Both the position numbers and the translations under genes were made by a program. Positions 3,161-28,065 of a stretch of 32,000 bases of DNA are shown here, one piece after another. The first letter of the stretch is position 1. Each line of letters opens with the position of its first letter. The notes beneath the pieces were generated by a model, which saw only the letters and a program-made list of their open reading frames with translations, had not been told where the DNA came from and made no database searches. The stretch is from positions 16,895 to 48,894 of the forward strand of contig SUPR01000013.1 of assembly GCA_005191425.1 (NCBI GenBank), written 5' to 3'. Source of the DNA: Candidatus Helarchaeota ASGARD archaeon Hel_GB_B (GTDB taxonomy: Archaea > Asgardarchaeota > Lokiarchaeia > Helarchaeales > HEL-GB-B).

Positions 3161-4435
3161 TTATTTTTTATAAAGTTCTCCCCATAAATCTATAGCAATT
3201 TTTAATTCTTTGTGAGTTTTAGCATAGTCATTTAGTTTAATTCCTTGGATAGTGGCTGATACTGCTTGTACCATTGCTCTTGCTCCAGCTTCAGTACCAT
3301 CTGGGTGTCCGTGGACACCACCTCCAGCTTGAATGACAATATCTTTTCCTAGTAGTTCAATATTTCTTTGGACAATTCCTGGGTGAATCCCACCTGATGC
3401 TACTGGAAAAGTCTTTTTAAGATTGTACCAATCACTCCGCAAAAATTTATAAATCTCTTGAATTTCTGGAAGTTCATCTACATCTCCCATTTTACCCGCA
3501 CCTGTTCCACTGTGTAATTGGTCTCCTCCTACCAGCCTTACTAGCTTTGCAATTACAAGCATAGAAATTCCATAGCTCCTTGCCCTTGTTATTGCTCCGT
3601 GCATGGTCCTATGAATATGTATTGGTAATTTAATTGATTCATCTTCTGCTATTATTTTTACAGCACTAAAACCGCAAGTTAGAACGTCAATCATTAAACA
3701 ATTTGCGCCATTATCCTTTGCAAAATCTGCTAAATCAAGTAACTTATCATAATCAGATGAAATATTTACTGCATATAAAACAGTTTTACCGGATTCTTCT
3801 TTAAAAGTATCTAGTTTTTCCATTACACTAGTTAATCTTTGTTCAAAAGGACAGAAATTTTGATTTGTCAATGTTTCATCGTCTTTTATTAAATCAAGTC
3901 CGCCTTTAGCTGCTCTATAAGCTATTAATGCTGTTTGTTTTGGATTTAGACCAACTTTTGGTTTAATAATAGTACCAATATGGGGCCTTTTACTATCTTG
4001 GGTTCCGCAAATCTTTCTAATTCCTTCTATTCCAAATTTAGGGCCCGGAAAATATCTTACATATTTTTCAGGAAAATTGACATCTACAAGTCTTACCTTT
4101 TTTAGTTCAGTTAGTCCAAATAAATTTCCTGCAATTATGCTTAATAAATTAGGTATACTGCCTGTTTCAATGTCAAATAGATCTACTGGGTAAGCTATAG
4201 CAATCATCCCAGAATTTGTACCAGAAAACTCGAAAGCTTTACCGGCTAAATCTTCTCTCATAAATTCAATATCATGCTCTAACTTTGCCCATGTCCCTAT
4301 CGATTCTTCTGCTGCAATAATTTTACCTACTTTTTGTAATGATAGTTTTGATTCAACAATATATTTTGCAATAATATTATCTTTAGGGTCAATATCCTCT
4401 GGATTAGAAAAATAAATTGAATCGTCATAACTCAT
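3161..4435 (-). CDS. rbcL: Ribulose-1,5-bisphosphate carboxylase/oxygenase, form III type
   Basis: AAEESIGTW, GNLFG, TIIKPKVGL, KDDE, HIHRTMHGA, QLHSGTGAGKM, ASGG and QAGGGVHGHP all present, so the catalytic set looks intact rather than RLP/form IV. Confidence 0.95.
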   Translation of the reverse strand: MSYDDSIYFSNPEDIDPKDNIIAKYIVESKLSLQKVGKIIAAEESIGTWAKLEHDIEFMREDLAGKAFEFSGTNSGMIAIAYPVDLFDIETGSIPNLLSIIAGNLFGLTELKKVRLVDVNFPEKYVRYFPGPKFGIEGIRKICGTQDSKRPHIGTIIKPKVGLNPKQTALIAYRAAKGGLDLIKDDETLTNQNFCPFEQRLTSVMEKLDTFKEESGKTVLYAVNISSDYDKLLDLADFAKDNGANCLMIDVLTCGFSAVKIIAEDESIKLPIHIHRTMHGAITRARSYGISMLVIAKLVRLVGGDQLHSGTGAGKMGDVDELPEIQEIYKFLRSDWYNLKKTFPVASGGIHPGIVQRNIELLGKDIVIQAGGGVHGHPDGTEAGARAMVQAVSATIQGIKLNDYAKTHKELKIAIDLWGELYKK

Positions 4436-7936: not shown

Positions 7937-8941
7937 TTAAAATTTATTTTTTAATTTATCTTTAATTAATTCGACAATTGTCTTTATTATATTTTTATCT
8001 GTTATATTCCCATTTATTCCGGCTGCAGATGAATGTCCTCCACCAGTTAAATTGTTACCATTTGATTCTGAAAACATTTTCGCTATTTCATTACTAATAT
8101 CACTCATTGAAATATTTGTTTTTTCATAAAATTGTTGTGTTGATCTTAAACTTATTCTTAATTCATTATTTTTAATAGATCTTACAATTGCAACGTCTGC
8201 TCCCATTACTATCAGACCTCGACATGCACTAGCCTCATAAGAGCTTACTTCTGAAGTGGCTAAAACCCAATTTTCAATTGTATATATTTTCGCTCGATTT
8301 CCTGCCTTTAATCTTGCAATTTTTTCAGAATATTCCATAGGATATCTTAATAACTTTGATACTTCTTTATAATCAATACCTAACGATAAAATTTTATTAA
8401 TTATATAAAATGTATTATTGGTCGCTATAATAAAATGTTTGGTATCATATATAATTCCTAATAATAAAATTTTTCCTTCCAATATACCCAATTCTAAGTT
8501 TAAGGATTCAAATACTTCAAAAATTATTTCTGAAGTTGAGCAATAATCTTCCTTTATTATAGAAAATATCGGTAAATAATCTTTATTTTGCATAAATGCG
8601 TGATGGTCGATAATAATAAATGGGGTCTTGTTTATTATAAAATCTTTTACATTACCTATTATTTCTATATTACTTACGTCCACTAATATAATTAAATCTG
8701 GTTTAATATTTGATATACTATTAATAAAATTATCTTTAAGATTAAAAAATTCGATTATTTTTTTTGTAATTAAGGTGAAATTGTCCGAATATATTTTTAT
8801 TTTTGATTTAATTCCAAATTTTTTAAGCAGAAAACTTAGTGCTATAGCGCTACTTAAGCCATCTGGGTCCATATTAATGTGACTACTTATTAAAATGGAC
8901 TTAGGATCTATGCTATTTATGTATTCAAATAAATTATTCAT
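7937..8941 (-). CDS. DHH family phosphoesterase, NrnA-like (oligoribonuclease / pAp phosphatase)
   Basis: SHINMDPDG, LVDVS, IIDHH, IIYDT, LRST, GGGHSSAAG. Start moved to ATG 8941, which has a GGTG SD; the track start at 8995 lies inside the tRNA gene. Confidence 0.88.
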   Translation of the reverse strand: MNNLFEYINSIDPKSILISSHINMDPDGLSSAIALSFLLKKFGIKSKIKIYSDNFTLITKKIIEFFNLKDNFINSISNIKPDLIILVDVSNIEIIGNVKDFIINKTPFIIIDHHAFMQNKDYLPIFSIIKEDYCSTSEIIFEVFESLNLELGILEGKILLLGIIYDTKHFIIATNNTFYIINKILSLGIDYKEVSKLLRYPMEYSEKIARLKAGNRAKIYTIENWVLATSEVSSYEASACRGLIVMGADVAIVRSIKNNELRISLRSTQQFYEKTNISMSDISNEIAKMFSESNGNNLTGGGHSSAAGINGNITDKNIIKTIVELIKDKLKNKF

Positions 8942-8981
8942 AAAATGGACACCAAAAATAAAATAAGTGCAGGGAATGGGA

Positions 8982-9007
8982 TTTTCGATTTCCAATTTTA
9001 GGAAATT
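8982..9007 (-). other. tRNA intron at position 59/60 in the T loop (26 nt)
   Basis: Strict BHB: T stem, bulge AAT, helix TTCG/CGAA, bulge AAA, inner stem ATTTCC/GGAAAT. Confidence 0.9.
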
Positions 9008-9038
9008 TTCGAACCCATGTACGTCTACACGACTGGAT

Positions 9039-9054
9039 ATCTTATTATTACTAT
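9039..9054 (-). other. tRNA intron at canonical position 37/38 (16 nt)
   Basis: ATAGTAATAATAAGAT between G37 and A38; central helix CTCA/TAAG has one C.A mismatch; inner helix weak (BHL-like). Confidence 0.85.
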
Positions 9055-9059
9055 CTTGA

Positions 9060-9086
9060 GTCTGGATCTAATCTTTCGACTAGATA
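9060..9086 (-). other. tRNA intron at position 32/33 (27 nt)
   Basis: Central helix CTGG/CCAG, two ACT bulges, inner stem ATCTAGTC-GAAA-GATTAGAT; outer helix only about 1 bp (relaxed HBh' type). Confidence 0.85.
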
Positions 9087-9688
9087 GTCCAGCGCCGTTG
9101 ACCAGCTTGGCTATCCCTGCTTTTTATATACTATAAATGTTCTGATCTTTTAATTTGTTTACTTTCCAAATCTTTATTTACTATCATATTCGAATTTTAA
9201 TATTCAATCTTGGTCAAGAATGTTGTTAATTCTTGATAATTCATAAATTTTTTGGTTCTTTTTAATATTTACCAAAATTAATTGTAAATTAAAATTTATT
9301 AGCTTTTAGTAAATGATCAAAATTTTTAAAATGTCTAAGAAAATTTAAAGTATTTTTTATTCTATGGTATTAAACATGTATTTTTTAATCGTTATATTCT
9401 TTTAAATAAAATATTAAGTCTTTAGGCTTATAGACTACCCTTTATTTTGAGCAATAGATTTAACGATAATTATAATAGTTTTATTGATTCTAATTAAAGC
9501 CTTTAATATTAACTGAGTTCTAAATTATTATTTATATTCTTTTTTTTTTCAAAAATTTAAATTTGTGATAAAAAAAGATTTCTATTGGAAATGAATTTTT
9601 CCTAAAAATTTGTTATGTGTTTATTTTTAAAAAATTCTAAGAAATATTGTAATCATTTTAGAAAATAAGATAATATAGAAATTTTAAA

Positions 9689-13090: not shown

Positions 13091-13163
13091 AGCCAGGAAT
13101 GGGACTTGAACCCATGTAAAACGGCTCTGCAGGCCGTCGCCTCGCCGACTAGACTATCCTGGC
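13091..13163 (-). tRNA. tRNA-Cys(GCA), no intron
   Basis: GCCAGGA/TCCTGGC acceptor stem with U73; anticodon arm ACGGC-CTGCAGA-GCCGT; T arm ATGGG-TTCAAGT-CCCAT. Confidence 0.96.
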
Positions 13164-13314
13164 ATATTTTTTGTCTATAATTCATTTATTTTTGATGTTG
13201 AGTTCAATAATTAAATATTGTATTAAAATTTTTCTTCCAATTTTACAAAATCTACATACATATTTATTTAAGAGAATTTTTCTTAATTTAAAAAATTATA
13301 TATATTGGATTATT

Positions 13315-14478
13315 ATGATTTTAATTAGATATGGCGAAATAGCGCTTAAAAGCCCAAGAATTAGATTAGAATGGGAAAAACAATTAATTAGAAATATTAA
13401 GTCCATATTAGAGTTAAATAATATTAGTTATAAAAATATTAAATTCTTACCGACAAGAGGTAGAATTTTTTTAGATATAAAATTAACAAGCAATATCTGT
13501 TCATTATTGAAAAAAGTCAGTGGAATTATTTCATTTAGTGAAGTTTTAGAAGCAAGTAACGAAATTAATTCCATTTCTAAAGTAACGCTTAAACTTGCCG
13601 ATCAAATTTTAGAAAATGGGGATACTTTTGCTTTAAAAGTTAGAAGGACTGGTACCCATAATTATTCCTCAATAGATATTGCTAGAATAGTTGGTAAAAA
13701 TGTATTAACCACTTTTTCAGATAGAAATATTTCTGTAAATTTGTCTTCTCCAAAAAGGACGATTTATATTGAAATAAGAGATAAGAATTCCTATATTTTT
13801 CATAATAAAATATCTGGGATGGGTGGATTACCAATTGGGACTCAAGGTAAAGTTATTGCATTGATTTCTGGAGGTATTGACAGCCCGGTCGCTGCTTGGA
13901 TGATGATGAAGCGAGGATGTTATATTAGACCAATATATTTTGATAATTATCCATATCTATCCAAAAAAAATATTGATAAAGTTATCAATTTAATAAAAAA
14001 ATTAAGAACCTTTGATCCCAGGAAAAAATTTTATTTTTATATCATTCCTCATGGCCCAAATTTAGAATTATTTCTAAAAAATGCGCCAAAAAATTATACT
14101 TGTTTATTGTGTAAAAGAATGCTTTATAGAATAGCAGAAGTCATCACAAAAAAGGAAAAAGCTAAAGCTATTGTTACAGGGGAAAATCTAGGACAAGTTG
14201 CAAGCCAAACGATTGACAATTTATATATTCTTAATGATTCAATAAAAATTCCAGTATTCAGACCATTAATTGGACTCGATAAGGAAGAAATTATTGATAT
14301 TGCCAAGAAAATAGGTACATTCAAAATCTCAACCGAATTTATCGATTCTTGTACTGCAGTACCAAAATTTCCTATAACAAAAGGAGATATTAATAAAGTA
14401 ATTAAATTTGAATCGGATATTAATATTGATAATTTAGTGAAAAATGCTATAAATAATATGAAAAAGGTTTATATTTGA
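13315..14478 (+). CDS. thiI: tRNA 4-thiouridine(8) synthase, archaeal type without rhodanese domain
   Basis: IRYGEIALKS, THUMP region, PP-loop SGGIDSPVA, CLLC plus distal Cys (DSC), TGENLGQVASQT. Start moved to ATG 13315; the upstream 48 codons are AT-rich intergenic-like. Confidence 0.93.
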   Translation: MILIRYGEIALKSPRIRLEWEKQLIRNIKSILELNNISYKNIKFLPTRGRIFLDIKLTSNICSLLKKVSGIISFSEVLEASNEINSISKVTLKLADQILENGDTFALKVRRTGTHNYSSIDIARIVGKNVLTTFSDRNISVNLSSPKRTIYIEIRDKNSYIFHNKISGMGGLPIGTQGKVIALISGGIDSPVAAWMMMKRGCYIRPIYFDNYPYLSKKNIDKVINLIKKLRTFDPRKKFYFYIIPHGPNLELFLKNAPKNYTCLLCKRMLYRIAEVITKKEKAKAIVTGENLGQVASQTIDNLYILNDSIKIPVFRPLIGLDKEEIIDIAKKIGTFKISTEFIDSCTAVPKFPITKGDINKVIKFESDINIDNLVKNAINNMKKVYI

Positions 14479-18432: not shown

Positions 18433-19680
18433 GTGAAAAATATGAGTACAACTATTCCACCAGAGACAACTTTAACTAAAATTATGCGTAGCTCAAGAGC
18501 AATTAAACAAATTCTTGTAATTGATACTGTCGGATTAGTTATAGCAAAAGTATTAAGGACTAAACCTATTGAAGGTATCGGTGCCCTTGAATCATCAATT
18601 TTTCGGAGTACAGAAGATATTGTCGAGTTTTTAAATCTAGGAAAATCACTTTTACATATTTCTGTATTCAATGATTATGCAATATTTGGTTTGGATATCG
18701 GAATTGGTAGCCTTGTAATTATTTTAGATTATAAAACACGCTGGGTTCTGGACGCTGACATAATTGATTCTGCTATTCGTGAATTAATTGATTTATGGGT
18801 TAATCAACTTGGACTCGAAGGATATGATTTTTCTGGTCTTAATAAATTAAAAAGGATTTTATCCCTTTTATATCAAGGCGATAGAGTCCCACCATTTAAA
18901 ATAGATGACTCCTCTTTTGATATAATTCATGATTTATTTGAAAATGTCCGAAATCCTTCGGTCTATGCAAATTGTATCACCAATGAATTGGGACTTCCTA
19001 TTGCTTTTGTTAGTCGTCCTGATTTTCAAGCTGATAGCGAAGAATTAGGTGGTACTTTATTAGCAGTAGATGCTATTGCTAAGGAAAAAGGCGAAAGTAG
19101 TGGACTTGGCAGACCAATTTTCACTGTCGTCTTTACAAGTCAAAATAAAGGCTTTTTGACTGCACATGCAGGGTCAATGGAAGGAGTTGAACCACTGGTA
19201 TATCTTACACTTTTTGACTTAAATAATGGATTTATCCCCATTTTATCTGAAACTAGACAAATGATTAAAAATATCTCGTCTGAATATGGAGATGAATTCT
19301 CTCAAAATTTAATTGAAACAATCGATTTAATTTTTAAACAATTATTCCCGGAAGAAAGTTTACCCGAAGAAGTAATTCCCGCTCAAAAATTAGACGAATT
19401 AAATAATATGTATATAGAAATGGAAAAAAATATTGATGAGAGCATAAATTATTACATGAGTATGTTAGGCGAATTTATGGAGCTAATATCATCTAGATGC
19501 GCTGAAATTCAGAATTCCTTGAGTACATATGACAAGGACCTTAGAAAATGGATACAAGAAAATGCACTTGTTTTTAAGGGAACTCCTTTTGAGCAAAAAA
19601 TGAATGAACAATTAAATAAATGGCTCAATGCTAAAGAGATAGTAGAAAATAAACTATCTAAAATGAGCTCTAGAGAATAA
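18433..19680 (+). CDS. Tandem Roadblock/LC7-like domain protein with C-terminal helical or coiled-coil region
   Basis: Two Roadblock-like patterns: IKQILVIDTVGLVIA...FLNLG and VYANCITNELGLPIA...SSGLG; ATG 18442 is an alternative start. Confidence 0.7.
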   Translation: MKNMSTTIPPETTLTKIMRSSRAIKQILVIDTVGLVIAKVLRTKPIEGIGALESSIFRSTEDIVEFLNLGKSLLHISVFNDYAIFGLDIGIGSLVIILDYKTRWVLDADIIDSAIRELIDLWVNQLGLEGYDFSGLNKLKRILSLLYQGDRVPPFKIDDSSFDIIHDLFENVRNPSVYANCITNELGLPIAFVSRPDFQADSEELGGTLLAVDAIAKEKGESSGLGRPIFTVVFTSQNKGFLTAHAGSMEGVEPLVYLTLFDLNNGFIPILSETRQMIKNISSEYGDEFSQNLIETIDLIFKQLFPEESLPEEVIPAQKLDELNNMYIEMEKNIDESINYYMSMLGEFMELISSRCAEIQNSLSTYDKDLRKWIQENALVFKGTPFEQKMNEQLNKWLNAKEIVENKLSKMSSRE

Positions 19681-20864: not shown

Positions 20865-22676
20865 CTATTTTGATTCGTCAATAAGAATGATTTCTGGCTC
20901 ATTATCGACTTTTAAATTAAATTTTTTAATTGTTTTATCTATAATTTTTTGAATTTCTTCAGCTTTATTTGATAATTCCGCTTTTTTATAATATTTTTTC
21001 GCATTTTTCCATAAATTAATTGCCTCTTCATATTTTTTATTCTTATATGACCGTCCTCCCTCTTCATACTTAATTTTAGCAAGTTTTTTACAAATATCAA
21101 TTATTTTTTCATTTATCATTTTTCGTCTTTTATCTTTTTCGGGCAAAATCGATTTATCTATACATTTTTCAAATAGTTGTAAAGCGTTTTCTAATTCGTT
21201 ATTTTTCAAATTATTTATAGCTTCTTCATAAAGTGAATTAAAATCTTCTTGACCTGTACTTTTTCGTAATAGTTTAGCAATTTTTGGGTCTGATTTAATA
21301 ATATTTTCAAATATTTCTCTTGGAGAAATGTCTGATAAAAACGGTCTCGGTATTTCTTCTTTTACTTTATAGTCTGTAGTTATTTCTTCTTTTGCTTCTA
21401 TAATTTTTCTAGAGGTCATAAGATCTTGCTGATTCATTTTGGTCGTTTTTACACCTACATTTGAAATTTCAGTTTGTGGTGCAGGAATATTTTTCGAAAA
21501 ATTCTTAATAGTTTGAGATTTTTCAGGTGATAAAGTAGTGGTCTGGCCAATTTCAGAGGCTTTCTCTGGGACTTGAGGTGTTTCTAACTCAGGTTGTGGT
21601 ATTTCTGGAGGAATAAGTATAGGCTCACCTTCAATTTCGGGGATTTCCTCCGAGACTTGAGGTGTTTCTAACTCAGGTTGTGGTATTTCTGGAGGAATAG
21701 GTATAGGCTTACCTTCAATTTCGGGGATTTCCTCCGGGACTTGAGGTGTTTCTAACTCAGGTTGTGGTATTTCTGGAGGAATAGGAATAGGTTTGCCCCC
21801 AATTTCGGGGATTCCCTCCAGGACTTGAGGTATTTCCAATTCAGGCTGCTGCACTTCAGGGATAGCAGTGATAGGTTCGCGCTCAATTTCGGTAGATTCT
21901 ACTTCAGAAATTTGTGAAGTTTCTAATTCAGGCTGTTGTCCTTCAAGGTTAGCAGTGACAGGTTCGCCCTCAGTTTCGGTAGATTCTATTTCAGAAATTT
22001 GTGGAGTTTCTAATTCAGGCTGTTGTCCTTCAAGGTTAGCAGTGATAGGTTCACCCTCAGTTTCGGTAGATTCTACTTCAGAAATTTGTGGAGTTTCTGA
22101 TTCAAGCTGTTGCTCTTCAGGGTTGGCAGTGATAGGTTCGCCCTCCGTTTCGAGTGCCTCTACTTCAGGCTGCCTCTTTTCTGTAGTAAATGATATAGAT
22201 TTATCTTTAATTTCTGGAACTTTATCAGAGGGATTCGATACTTTTGTCTTTAAGATATTATCTTTAGATTTTTCTATAGTCATTTCAAAATCTTTTTCTT
22301 CTTTATTTTCTTCAATCTTTTCATTTTGTAATTGTTCAATTAATGAATTTAATTTTAACAATATTTCAATTCGTCTATTAAAACTATAAATTTTGAATGC
22401 CTCTAAACTTTTTAATACCTCCTCGTTTTTAAAATCACTTTTTCTAAATTTATTAGTTTCTTTTTTTACATCATTTAACAATTCATTAAATTGTTTTAGT
22501 AGATTTTTATAATTCTCTTTTAAATCTGGTGATTTTGATACTTTATTTGGAATTCTATTATTTATAAAATCTTCTAAGATATCAAAATCCAATATATTAT
22601 CTGGGAATAATTTTGAAAATTCAGTAATAAATAAGTCAATAGGATCTTGTAAATTGACCAAATTTCTCACCTTCAA
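20865..22676 (-). CDS. Hypothetical protein with a central Pro/Glu tandem-repeat linker and C-terminal TPR-like helices
   Basis: 603-aa open frame; helical N-terminus; repeat array; C-terminal ALQLFEKC...YEEAINLWKNA helical repeats. Confidence 0.8.
   Translation of the reverse strand: MKVRNLVNLQDPIDLFITEFSKLFPDNILDFDILEDFINNRIPNKVSKSPDLKENYKNLLKQFNELLNDVKKETNKFRKSDFKNEEVLKSLEAFKIYSFNRRIEILLKLNSLIEQLQNEKIEENKEEKDFEMTIEKSKDNILKTKVSNPSDKVPEIKDKSISFTTEKRQPEVEALETEGEPITANPEEQQLESETPQISEVESTETEGEPITANLEGQQPELETPQISEIESTETEGEPVTANLEGQQPELETSQISEVESTEIEREPITAIPEVQQPELEIPQVLEGIPEIGGKPIPIPPEIPQPELETPQVPEEIPEIEGKPIPIPPEIPQPELETPQVSEEIPEIEGEPILIPPEIPQPELETPQVPEKASEIGQTTTLSPEKSQTIKNFSKNIPAPQTEISNVGVKTTKMNQQDLMTSRKIIEAKEEITTDYKVKEEIPRPFLSDISPREIFENIIKSDPKIAKLLRKSTGQEDFNSLYEEAINNLKNNELENALQLFEKCIDKSILPEKDKRRKMINEKIIDICKKLAKIKYEEGGRSYKNKKYEEAINLWKNAKKYYKKAELSNKAEEIQKIIDKTIKKFNLKVDNEPEIILIDESK
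21552..22148 (-). repeat. Coding tandem repeat: 3 x 87 bp followed by 4 x 84 bp
   Basis: Units TEGEPITANLEGQQPELETPQISEIESTE (29 aa) and IEGKPIPIPPEIPQPELETPQVSEEIPE (28 aa); visibly higher GC than the flanks. Confidence 0.95.
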
Positions 22677-27486: not shown

Positions 27487-28065
27487 CTATGGTTTAAACC
27501 AAGAAAATATATAATATGAAACTGTTTTATCAGAATTAATTGTAGCAATTACGAATTTTTTTCTTACAGTTGTAGCTAATCTCCCAGCTCTAACCATTTC
27601 AATAGCTGAAATTACTTCGTTAGAAGGCAAGACATGGACAATAAATGGTGCATGGTCTATACCCGGGCCATGTTCATAAACTGCAAAATCAGCTCCAAAT
27701 TTAAGTCCTGGTCTGACAACATATTTATCTCTTAGATTTGAATATATGATATATTTCTCTTCAAACCGGTCGTGTATTTTTTTTGCTATCTCTTTAAATG
27801 ATTTTTTATCTATAATTGATTTTGATATTGAATCTCTAAGGATTATTTTATCTTTTTCAAGTAAGTACAGCGTTTCAAATAACGATAATTCTAATGGTCT
27901 ATCAAAGTCGGTCGATTTGGGTTTTCTAATTCCTAATGGTTTTCCATAGAATCCATTTTTATATAATTCTGATCCATCTTTAGAATTCCAAATGATTACT
28001 CTATTTTGAAGGAGTTCAGCTTCTATAATATAAAAATTATCATTTTTTTCTATATTTTCTTCCAT
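27487..28065 (-). CDS. endA: tRNA splicing endonuclease, catalytic subunit
   Basis: ELSLFETLYL, GLKFGADFAVY, GPGIDHAP, RLATTVRKK; catalytic Tyr/His/Lys present; single-unit size (192 aa). Confidence 0.95.
   Translation of the reverse strand: MEENIEKNDNFYIIEAELLQNRVIIWNSKDGSELYKNGFYGKPLGIRKPKSTDFDRPLELSLFETLYLLEKDKIILRDSISKSIIDKKSFKEIAKKIHDRFEEKYIIYSNLRDKYVVRPGLKFGADFAVYEHGPGIDHAPFIVHVLPSNEVISAIEMVRAGRLATTVRKKFVIATINSDKTVSYYIFSWFKP

Follow-up and report, generated by a model that had tools for sequence, protein, structure and literature searches.

The minus-strand gene that runs from position 9120 (G1) to position 8968 (A73) of the window, i.e. of the whole 32,000-nucleotide stretch of DNA analysed here, is in all likelihood a functional tRNA-Leu(CAA) gene of 153 nt, whose transcript would carry three protein-spliced introns of the bulge-helix-bulge (BHB) type at positions 32/33, 37/38 and 59/60 that EndA and RtcB would remove. 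This judgement draws on sequence comparison and on folding of the precursor. Asgard archaea are already known to have tRNA genes with many interruptions, and this gene is a further well-supported example. One distinctive feature of it is a 5-nt anticodon exon that stands between two overlapping splice motifs.

Identity and anatomy of the gene

Excision of nucleotides 35-61 (27 nt, site 32/33), 67-82 (16 nt, site 37/38) and 114-139 (26 nt, site 59/60) of the pre-tRNA leaves an 84-nt sequence with 56% GC. ARAGORN classifies this spliced product as tRNA-Leu(CAA) having a perfect 7-bp acceptor stem, a 5-bp anticodon stem with the loop CUCAAGA, a 5-bp T-stem with the T-loop UUCGAAU, a long variable arm and A73. 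The variable region is 14 nt long and includes a 3-bp stem. Removal of the introns restores the standard cloverleaf, and the invariants U8, G18G19, U33, G53-UUCRA and C61 are present. By the identity rules of archaeal LeuRS, a class II archaeal tRNA-Leu is marked by a long variable arm, by A73 as discriminator and by an anticodon for Leu; all three are found in the spliced product, whose anticodon is CAA. CCA is not encoded in the gene. The GC content is 40-65% in the exons and 12-37% in the introns, compared to 28% for the genome.

ARAGORN made no tRNA call on the unspliced gene, and the unspliced locus had no Rfam match at the gathering threshold. Using permissive Rfam filters and E<=10 on a 301-nt slice, we still found no tRNA match at the locus. 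Three short introns cut the gene in four, and standard tRNA finders therefore miss it. The sole ARAGORN call in the window was the intron-less tRNA-Cys(GCA) gene at 13091-13163 on the minus strand. It belongs to the small group of about five tRNA genes in this genome that were found to have no intron, and lies back to back with the gene for ThiI (tRNA 4-thiouridine/thiamine) at 13171-14478 on the plus strand.

We also parsed the locus with a motif-guided solver that was blind to the earlier proposal. The solver removes any segment having a BHB-like junction and keeps the product if cloverleaf rules are satisfied. The same three introns were its most parsimonious solution; a four-intron alternative, in which intron 3 is split, was rejected as being less parsimonious and having weaker motifs. 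The first-pass annotation, made from the letters of the stretch, had read a tRNA-Leu(CAA) with introns of these lengths at these sites, had considered an Asgard origin, and had expected default annotation to miss the gene. Its reading is borne out on all four counts: ARAGORN accepts the spliced product, the independent solver reproduces the introns, the genome is that of an Asgard archaeon, and ARAGORN and Rfam find nothing in the unspliced form. Coordinates of the gene, its parts and the related features of the window can be seen in Table 1.

Table 1 Features of the tRNA-Leu(CAA) locus and related genes. Positions are those of the window.
Feature	Position	Strand	Description
Exon 1	9087..9120	-	34 nt, 65% GC; tRNA positions 1-32: acceptor 5' strand, D-arm, anticodon-stem 5' strand, C32
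Intron 1	9060..9086	-	27 nt, at 32/33
Exon 2	9055..9059	-	5 nt, UCAAG: U33, anticodon C34-A35-A36, G37; plus strand reads cttga
Intron 2	9039..9054	-	16 nt, at the canonical 37/38 site
Exon 3	9008..9038	-	31 nt; tRNA positions 38-59: anticodon-stem 3' strand, long variable arm, T-stem 5' strand, T-loop UUCGAA
Intron 3	8982..9007	-	26 nt, at 59/60
Exon 4	8968..8981	-	tRNA positions 60-73: U60, T-stem 3' strand, acceptor 3' strand, discriminator A73
T-rich run UUAUUUUAUUUUU	8954..8966	-	Directly 3' of the tRNA, read from the sequence; candidate archaeal terminator
Candidate TATA element TTAAAAG	9147..9153	-	At -33 to -27; weak evidence in a 28% GC genome
DHH/DHHA1 phosphoesterase gene	7937..8941	-	Directly downstream of tRNA-Leu(CAA)
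EndA catalytic (alpha) subunit gene	27487..28065	-	192 aa; about 18 kb from tRNA-Leu(CAA), in the same window

From the candidate TATA element and the T-rich run we infer a putative promoter and a putative terminator of the gene. A relative of the same genus (G001) has ATAAAAG at -30 to -24 of its tRNA-Leu(CAA). The longest open reading frame of the neighbouring DHH gene (7937..8995, TTG start) overlaps the tRNA by 28 nt, in agreement with the earlier remark that the ORF track extends a protein into the tRNA. The start of the DHH gene is likely the in-frame ATG at 8941, which lies behind GGTG, and not the TTG at 8995. The tRNA-Leu(CAA) gene stands directly upstream of the DHH gene in G000, G001, G005 and G003, and at least two families of the order share the pair. 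This conserved arrangement supports orthology of the tRNA genes and indicates that the TTG-started frame is an over-extension.

Among the other genes of the window, a homologue of the RuBisCO large subunit (3161-4435, minus strand) has as its best named relatives proteins of Helarchaeota Hel_GB_A (64%), a Baldrarchaeota metagenome-assembled genome (MAG, 63%) and Atabeyarchaeum (57%); an uncultured-archaeon MAG also has 64%. This protein served to place the genome. For the long open reading frames at 20865-22676 (minus strand, 603 aa) and 18433-19680 (plus strand, 415 aa), Pfam gave no match at E<=0.001.

Splice motifs and their conservation in relatives

In the BHB geometry used here, a central helix H of 4 bp pairs the 5' exon with the 3' end of the intron, and two 3-nt bulges are each cut after their second base (the cut is marked below by a hyphen). 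Intron 3 has a strict hBHBh' motif. Its central helix UUCG/CGAA has 4 of 4 pairs, its bulges are AA-A and AA-U, its inner stem AUUUCC/GGAAAU has 6 bp, and the 5-bp T-stem serves as outer helix. When the whole precursor is folded without constraints, this motif forms in the minimum-energy structure, and its pairs have probabilities of 0.86-0.97. In intron 1, the central helix CUGG/CCAG is likewise complete (4/4), both bulges are AC-U, and the inner stem has 5 Watson-Crick pairs, or up to 8 with G.U pairs. The outer helix of this motif is only 1 bp, which makes it a relaxed motif of HBh' or BHL type; its helix-bulge-helix is also present in the unconstrained minimum-energy structure of the precursor. 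Intron 2 has the central helix CUCA/UAAG with 3 of 4 pairs (C34.A is a mismatch), the bulges AG-A and AU-A and an inner stem of about 1 bp, and the anticodon stem is its outer helix (hBH type).

In order to compare these motifs to chance, we performed a shuffle test in which each intron was shuffled with the splice sites fixed and the BHB scores were compared. The observed score was reached in 0.04% of the shuffles for intron 1, in 0.025% for intron 3 and in about 5% for intron 2. Motifs 1 and 3 are thus clearly non-random, and the motif at the canonical site is no more than a relaxed one. Each boundary pair of the gene is thus a BHB or an accepted relaxed form of it, with intron 2 only marginally above its shuffles. 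The first-pass annotation had claimed a BHB-type motif for every junction set. The claim stands in full for the strict motif of intron 3, and less so for the other two, as intron 1 lacks a proper outer helix and intron 2 combines the C.A mismatch with almost no inner stem. Owing to repeated junction bases, the product stays the same for any placement of intron 1 between 30/31 and 33/34 and of intron 3 between 57/58 and 59/60, and therefore the intron positions given here rest on the BHB geometry.

A survey of related genomes had been recommended in the earlier annotation. We searched 40 relatives and inspected the loci, which yielded 17 Leu(CAA) orthologues; the solver parsed 15 of these, and the remaining two (G006 and G017) were read by eye. 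A synteny search of genome contigs with the DHH protein found no relatives. The same-genus relative G001 keeps all three introns, at identical sites and with lengths of 27, 16 and 27 nt. The mature sequences of the two genes are 97.6% identical, compared to roughly 60% for the introns. In G001 the exon-pairing segments of the introns are retained and the inner stems are rebuilt, from AUCUA/UAGAU to AUCUGGGA/UCCCGGAU in one case and from AUUUCC/GGAAAU to UCUCCCA/UGGGAG(G) in the other; its intron 1 motif has one additional unpaired base. At the level of the class, the central helix at 32/33 has 4 pairs in all ten orthologues having a 32/33 intron, in spite of changes on both sides (CUGG/CCAG, GUGG/CCAC, CCGG/CUGG and CUGG/CUAG), and the 59/60 helix of G006 is UCCG/CGGA where the present gene has UUCG/CGAA. 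In relatives, then, the motifs are upheld by compensatory change while the intron sequence drifts, and selection is therefore at work on the structure that the endonuclease reads.

The set of introns differs between families. Introns at 32/33, 37/38 and 59/60 were found in family f1 (G000 and G001), introns in the variable arm and at 59/60 in f2 (G006), introns in the D-loop and at 37/38, with or without 59/60, in f3 (G003 and G005), and introns in the D-loop and at 37/38 in f5 (G017). Members of f4 have introns at both 32/33 and 37/38, at 32/33 alone or at 37/38 alone. The 37/38 introns of f4 (L003, L005, L007, L009, L027-L029, L032 and L033) are 27-48 nt long and share conserved CCGUUGA and (C/A)UGAUGAG blocks that resemble box D and box C (k-turn). 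These blocks could represent an intron-borne guide RNA; a comparison of these introns to Rfam returned no snoRNA or sRNA match. A guide of this kind was rejected for the 37/38 intron of the present gene, which with 16 nt is too short to hold one.

Splicing machinery, proposed order of splicing and alternative explanations

The genome encodes RtcB and two EndA paralogues. The catalytic alpha subunit (Table 1) aligns end to end to the alpha subunit of Aeropyrum pernix (E=2.5e-42) and keeps the catalytic His context GPGIDHAPF. It has a crenarchaeal-type specificity loop, IRKPKS, whose basic residues align to K44/R46 of A. pernix; experiments have shown that these residues and the loop give the enzyme its ability to cleave non-canonical and bulge-helix-loop substrates (PMC3241643). 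The second paralogue, on contig C98 (L014:1474-2070, minus strand), has Ala at the position of the catalytic His, which fits a structural beta subunit. The genome accordingly has the gene complement of an (alpha-beta)2 EndA: a catalytic paralogue that carries the L1/CSL loop with its Lys, and a distinct second one that lacks a catalytic residue. Kaneta et al. (2018) described (alpha-beta)2 EndA with an L1 loop in Asgard archaea (PMC5829648).

We propose that a heteromeric EndA, predicted to consist of the alpha subunit with its broad-specificity loop and the non-catalytic paralogue, would cut after the second base of each 3-nt bulge, that RtcB would ligate the exons, and that CCA would be added after splicing. 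Introns 1 and 3 would be recognisable in the primary transcript, and removal of intron 3 would be independent of the other two. The situation in the anticodon arm is different in that motifs 1 and 2 overlap, the strand 27-30 and U33 being common to both. In motif 1, positions 27-30 go into the central helix and U33 lies in the 3' bulge. In motif 2, U33 belongs to the central helix, and the outer helix requires pairing of 27-31 with 39-43. The CCAG copy of intron 1 pairs with the 5' strand of the anticodon stem, so that the real anticodon stem, i.e. the outer helix of motif 2, would become free only after intron 1 is out and the exons are joined. The proposed order in the anticodon arm would therefore be removal of intron 1, ligation, and then recognition of intron 2. 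Such an order would keep the 5-nt anticodon exon covalently attached throughout and prevent its loss. Constrained folding of naked RNA with the 37 °C nearest-neighbour model gave the motif 1 conformer an advantage of 5.7 kcal/mol over the conformer having the anticodon stem and the motif 2 helix, and the ensemble pair probabilities were 0.26-0.37 for motif 1 and 0.03-0.06 for the anticodon stem.

How firmly the order is imposed is a separate matter. Intron 1 of this gene ends in C, and the CUCA strand of the motif 2 central helix consequently exists before intron 1 is removed. As part of motif 2 is thus in place beforehand, we consider the chance that excision of intron 1 and ligation must precede recognition of intron 2 to be only even or slightly better, as judged from the folding model. 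The gene could also be functional with its anticodon-arm introns removed in either order or simultaneously, a reading that the pre-existing CUCA strand favours, together with the report that loop-bearing EndA enzymes cut relaxed bulge-helix-loop substrates (PMC3241643). We regard it as a real possibility with a probability appreciably below even, because the two motifs compete for the same strand and the same U33 with the energy difference given above, because simultaneous cutting would free a 5-nt exon held by at most 3 base pairs, and because in several class relatives intron 1 ends in A, such that the motif 2 helix reaches 4 of 4 pairs only once intron 1 has been removed. With an enforced order as the preferred reading, we tentatively suggest, at somewhat less than an even chance, that the anticodon arm acts as a built-in device for ordered splicing, made of two mutually exclusive motifs around a 5-nt anticodon exon, the 32/33 and 37/38 introns being kept in at least two families of the class.

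Two other explanations concern the gene as such. BLAST of the exons against the genome did not find a second Leu(CAA) copy, and a scan for Leu-type 5' ends found one gene each for GAG (no intron), UAG (two introns), UAA (three), CAG (three) and CAA. Whether this is the only Leu(CAA) gene had been posed as a check in the first-pass annotation, and both searches answer that it is, in a genome that is 94% complete. TTG makes up 12.3% of the Leu codons in long open reading frames. The gene is probably essential; tRNA-Leu(UAA) could in principle read UUG. A decaying tRNA pseudogene, with three accumulated insertions that are not spliced to a working tRNA, might be suspected from the rejection of the gene by generic finders and from the weak motif of intron 2. 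It is nevertheless very unlikely, considering that the exons are conserved in the congener far beyond the inserts and the stems are compensated, that all invariant tRNA positions are found in the spliced product, that no other Leu(CAA) gene is at hand, and that most other tRNA genes of the genome are built likewise. A chimeric contig or a mis-joined repeat could also create apparent inserts, and the genome is a metagenome-assembled draft of 182 contigs with 4.9% estimated contamination. Such an assembly or binning artefact is extremely improbable, as contigs from three separate metagenome runs (hydrothermal-vent samples; the assembly may derive from one of these runs) span all 401 nt of the stretch, introns included, with zero differences and no alternative joints, and the gene of a second species is built in the same way and has the same neighbouring genes. 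We conclude that this is very probably a genuine and functional tRNA-Leu(CAA) gene.

Interrupted tRNA genes in this genome and in known systems

For the whole genome, ARAGORN reported 16 tRNA genes and Rfam about 15 above threshold. We surveyed the genome using T-arm/acceptor seeds and the BHB solver, in replacement of a GC-island scan that was too noisy (3447 islands). At least 27 of the 32 solved tRNA candidates have introns and five have none, with a mean of about 1.5 introns per gene; these values are a lower bound, as the survey depends on G53-UUCRA and U8 being intact, it covered candidates of up to 170 nt, several candidates are unsolved, and some parses are imperfect. Site 59/60 is an intron hot spot genome-wide. 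The genes for Leu(UAA), Leu(CAG), Leu(UAG) and Pro(CGG) lie on contigs C133, C166, C124 and C141 of the same genome. The first two were mis-solved by the survey solver and were parsed by eye: Leu(UAA) has three introns (D-loop, 32/33 and 59/60), and so does Leu(CAG) (37/38, variable arm and 59/60). Leu(UAG) has two introns and Pro(CGG) three. Leu(UAA) and Leu(CAA) are close paralogues, and the 32/33 and 59/60 introns that they have in common may reflect shared ancestry or transfer between paralogues.

These numbers contradict the earlier view that a three-intron gene would be rare, or unusual for an Asgard genome, given that most tRNA genes here are interrupted, at least three others have three introns, and three-intron Leu(CAA) genes of Atabeyarchaeia have already been tabulated. 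If our reading is true, a Helarchaeales-like lineage, having a mean of about 1.5 introns in its solved tRNA genes, would join the two classes on which publications have laid emphasis as another Asgard lineage with heavily interrupted tRNA genes. For annotation, this means that the full decoding set, including the only Leu(CAA) gene, emerges only when non-canonical introns are modelled; without such models the genome appears tRNA-deficient and a neighbouring reading frame is over-extended into a tRNA. The gene is also a compact substrate for testing a fixed splicing order in archaeal multi-intron pre-tRNAs, with the cognate EndA gene 18 kb away.

The closest published picture is that of Valentin-Alvarado et al. 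(2024), in which 92-95% of the tRNA genes of Atabeyarchaeia and Freyarchaeia have introns and over half of them have several (PMC11291895). In Supplementary Data 4 of that study, the Leu(CAA) genes of Atabeyarchaeia-1 and -2 are listed with three introns, of which tRNAscan-SE found one (PMC11291895). Compared on isoacceptor, intron number and length, those genes and the present one are the same isoacceptor with three introns each, in 175 and 153 nt respectively; the class is a different one here (Lokiarchaeia/Helarchaeales-like), and it is given no prominence in the main text of that study or of the census preprint cited below. Under-calling of the introns by standard software, introns at non-canonical sites (T-arm and elsewhere) and a background of (alpha-beta)2 EndA are common to the Asgard multi-intron tRNAs and to this genome, for which the (alpha-beta)2 form is predicted. 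A 2026 preprint (10.64898/2026.10.13.758758) reports up to five introns per gene and a tRNAscan-SE miss rate of 30%. Helarchaeales or Lokiarchaeia are absent from its main text, and the intron load of this lineage may thus be under-reported. Overlapping motifs, a 5-nt exon and the order of splicing are absent from the main texts of both PMC11291895 and 10.64898/2026.10.13.758758. With its covariation between members of one genus, the present gene adds to what has been published on such multiply interrupted tRNA genes in Asgard archaea.

Multi-intron tRNAs of Thermoproteales (Sugahara 2007/2008; reviewed in PMC4033280 and PMC4090602) similarly carry introns of BHB or relaxed BHB type, both at the canonical site and elsewhere, three being the stated maximum per gene (PMC4033280). 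The endonuclease acting on them is an (alpha-beta)2 EndA that bears the crenarchaeal specificity loop, and the loop is likewise found here. In contrast to these systems, the present gene belongs to a different phylum and to a mesophile-like genome of 28% GC, with AT-rich introns and a hot spot at 59/60. As for the enzyme, the alpha subunit has the catalytic His context and the K44/R46 loop residues in common with the alpha2-beta2 EndA of A. pernix (PDB 3P1Z/3AJV), whereas its predicted partner here is a full-length EndA-like paralogue nearest to the M. kandleri and M. jannaschii proteins and not the short crenarchaeal beta subunit.
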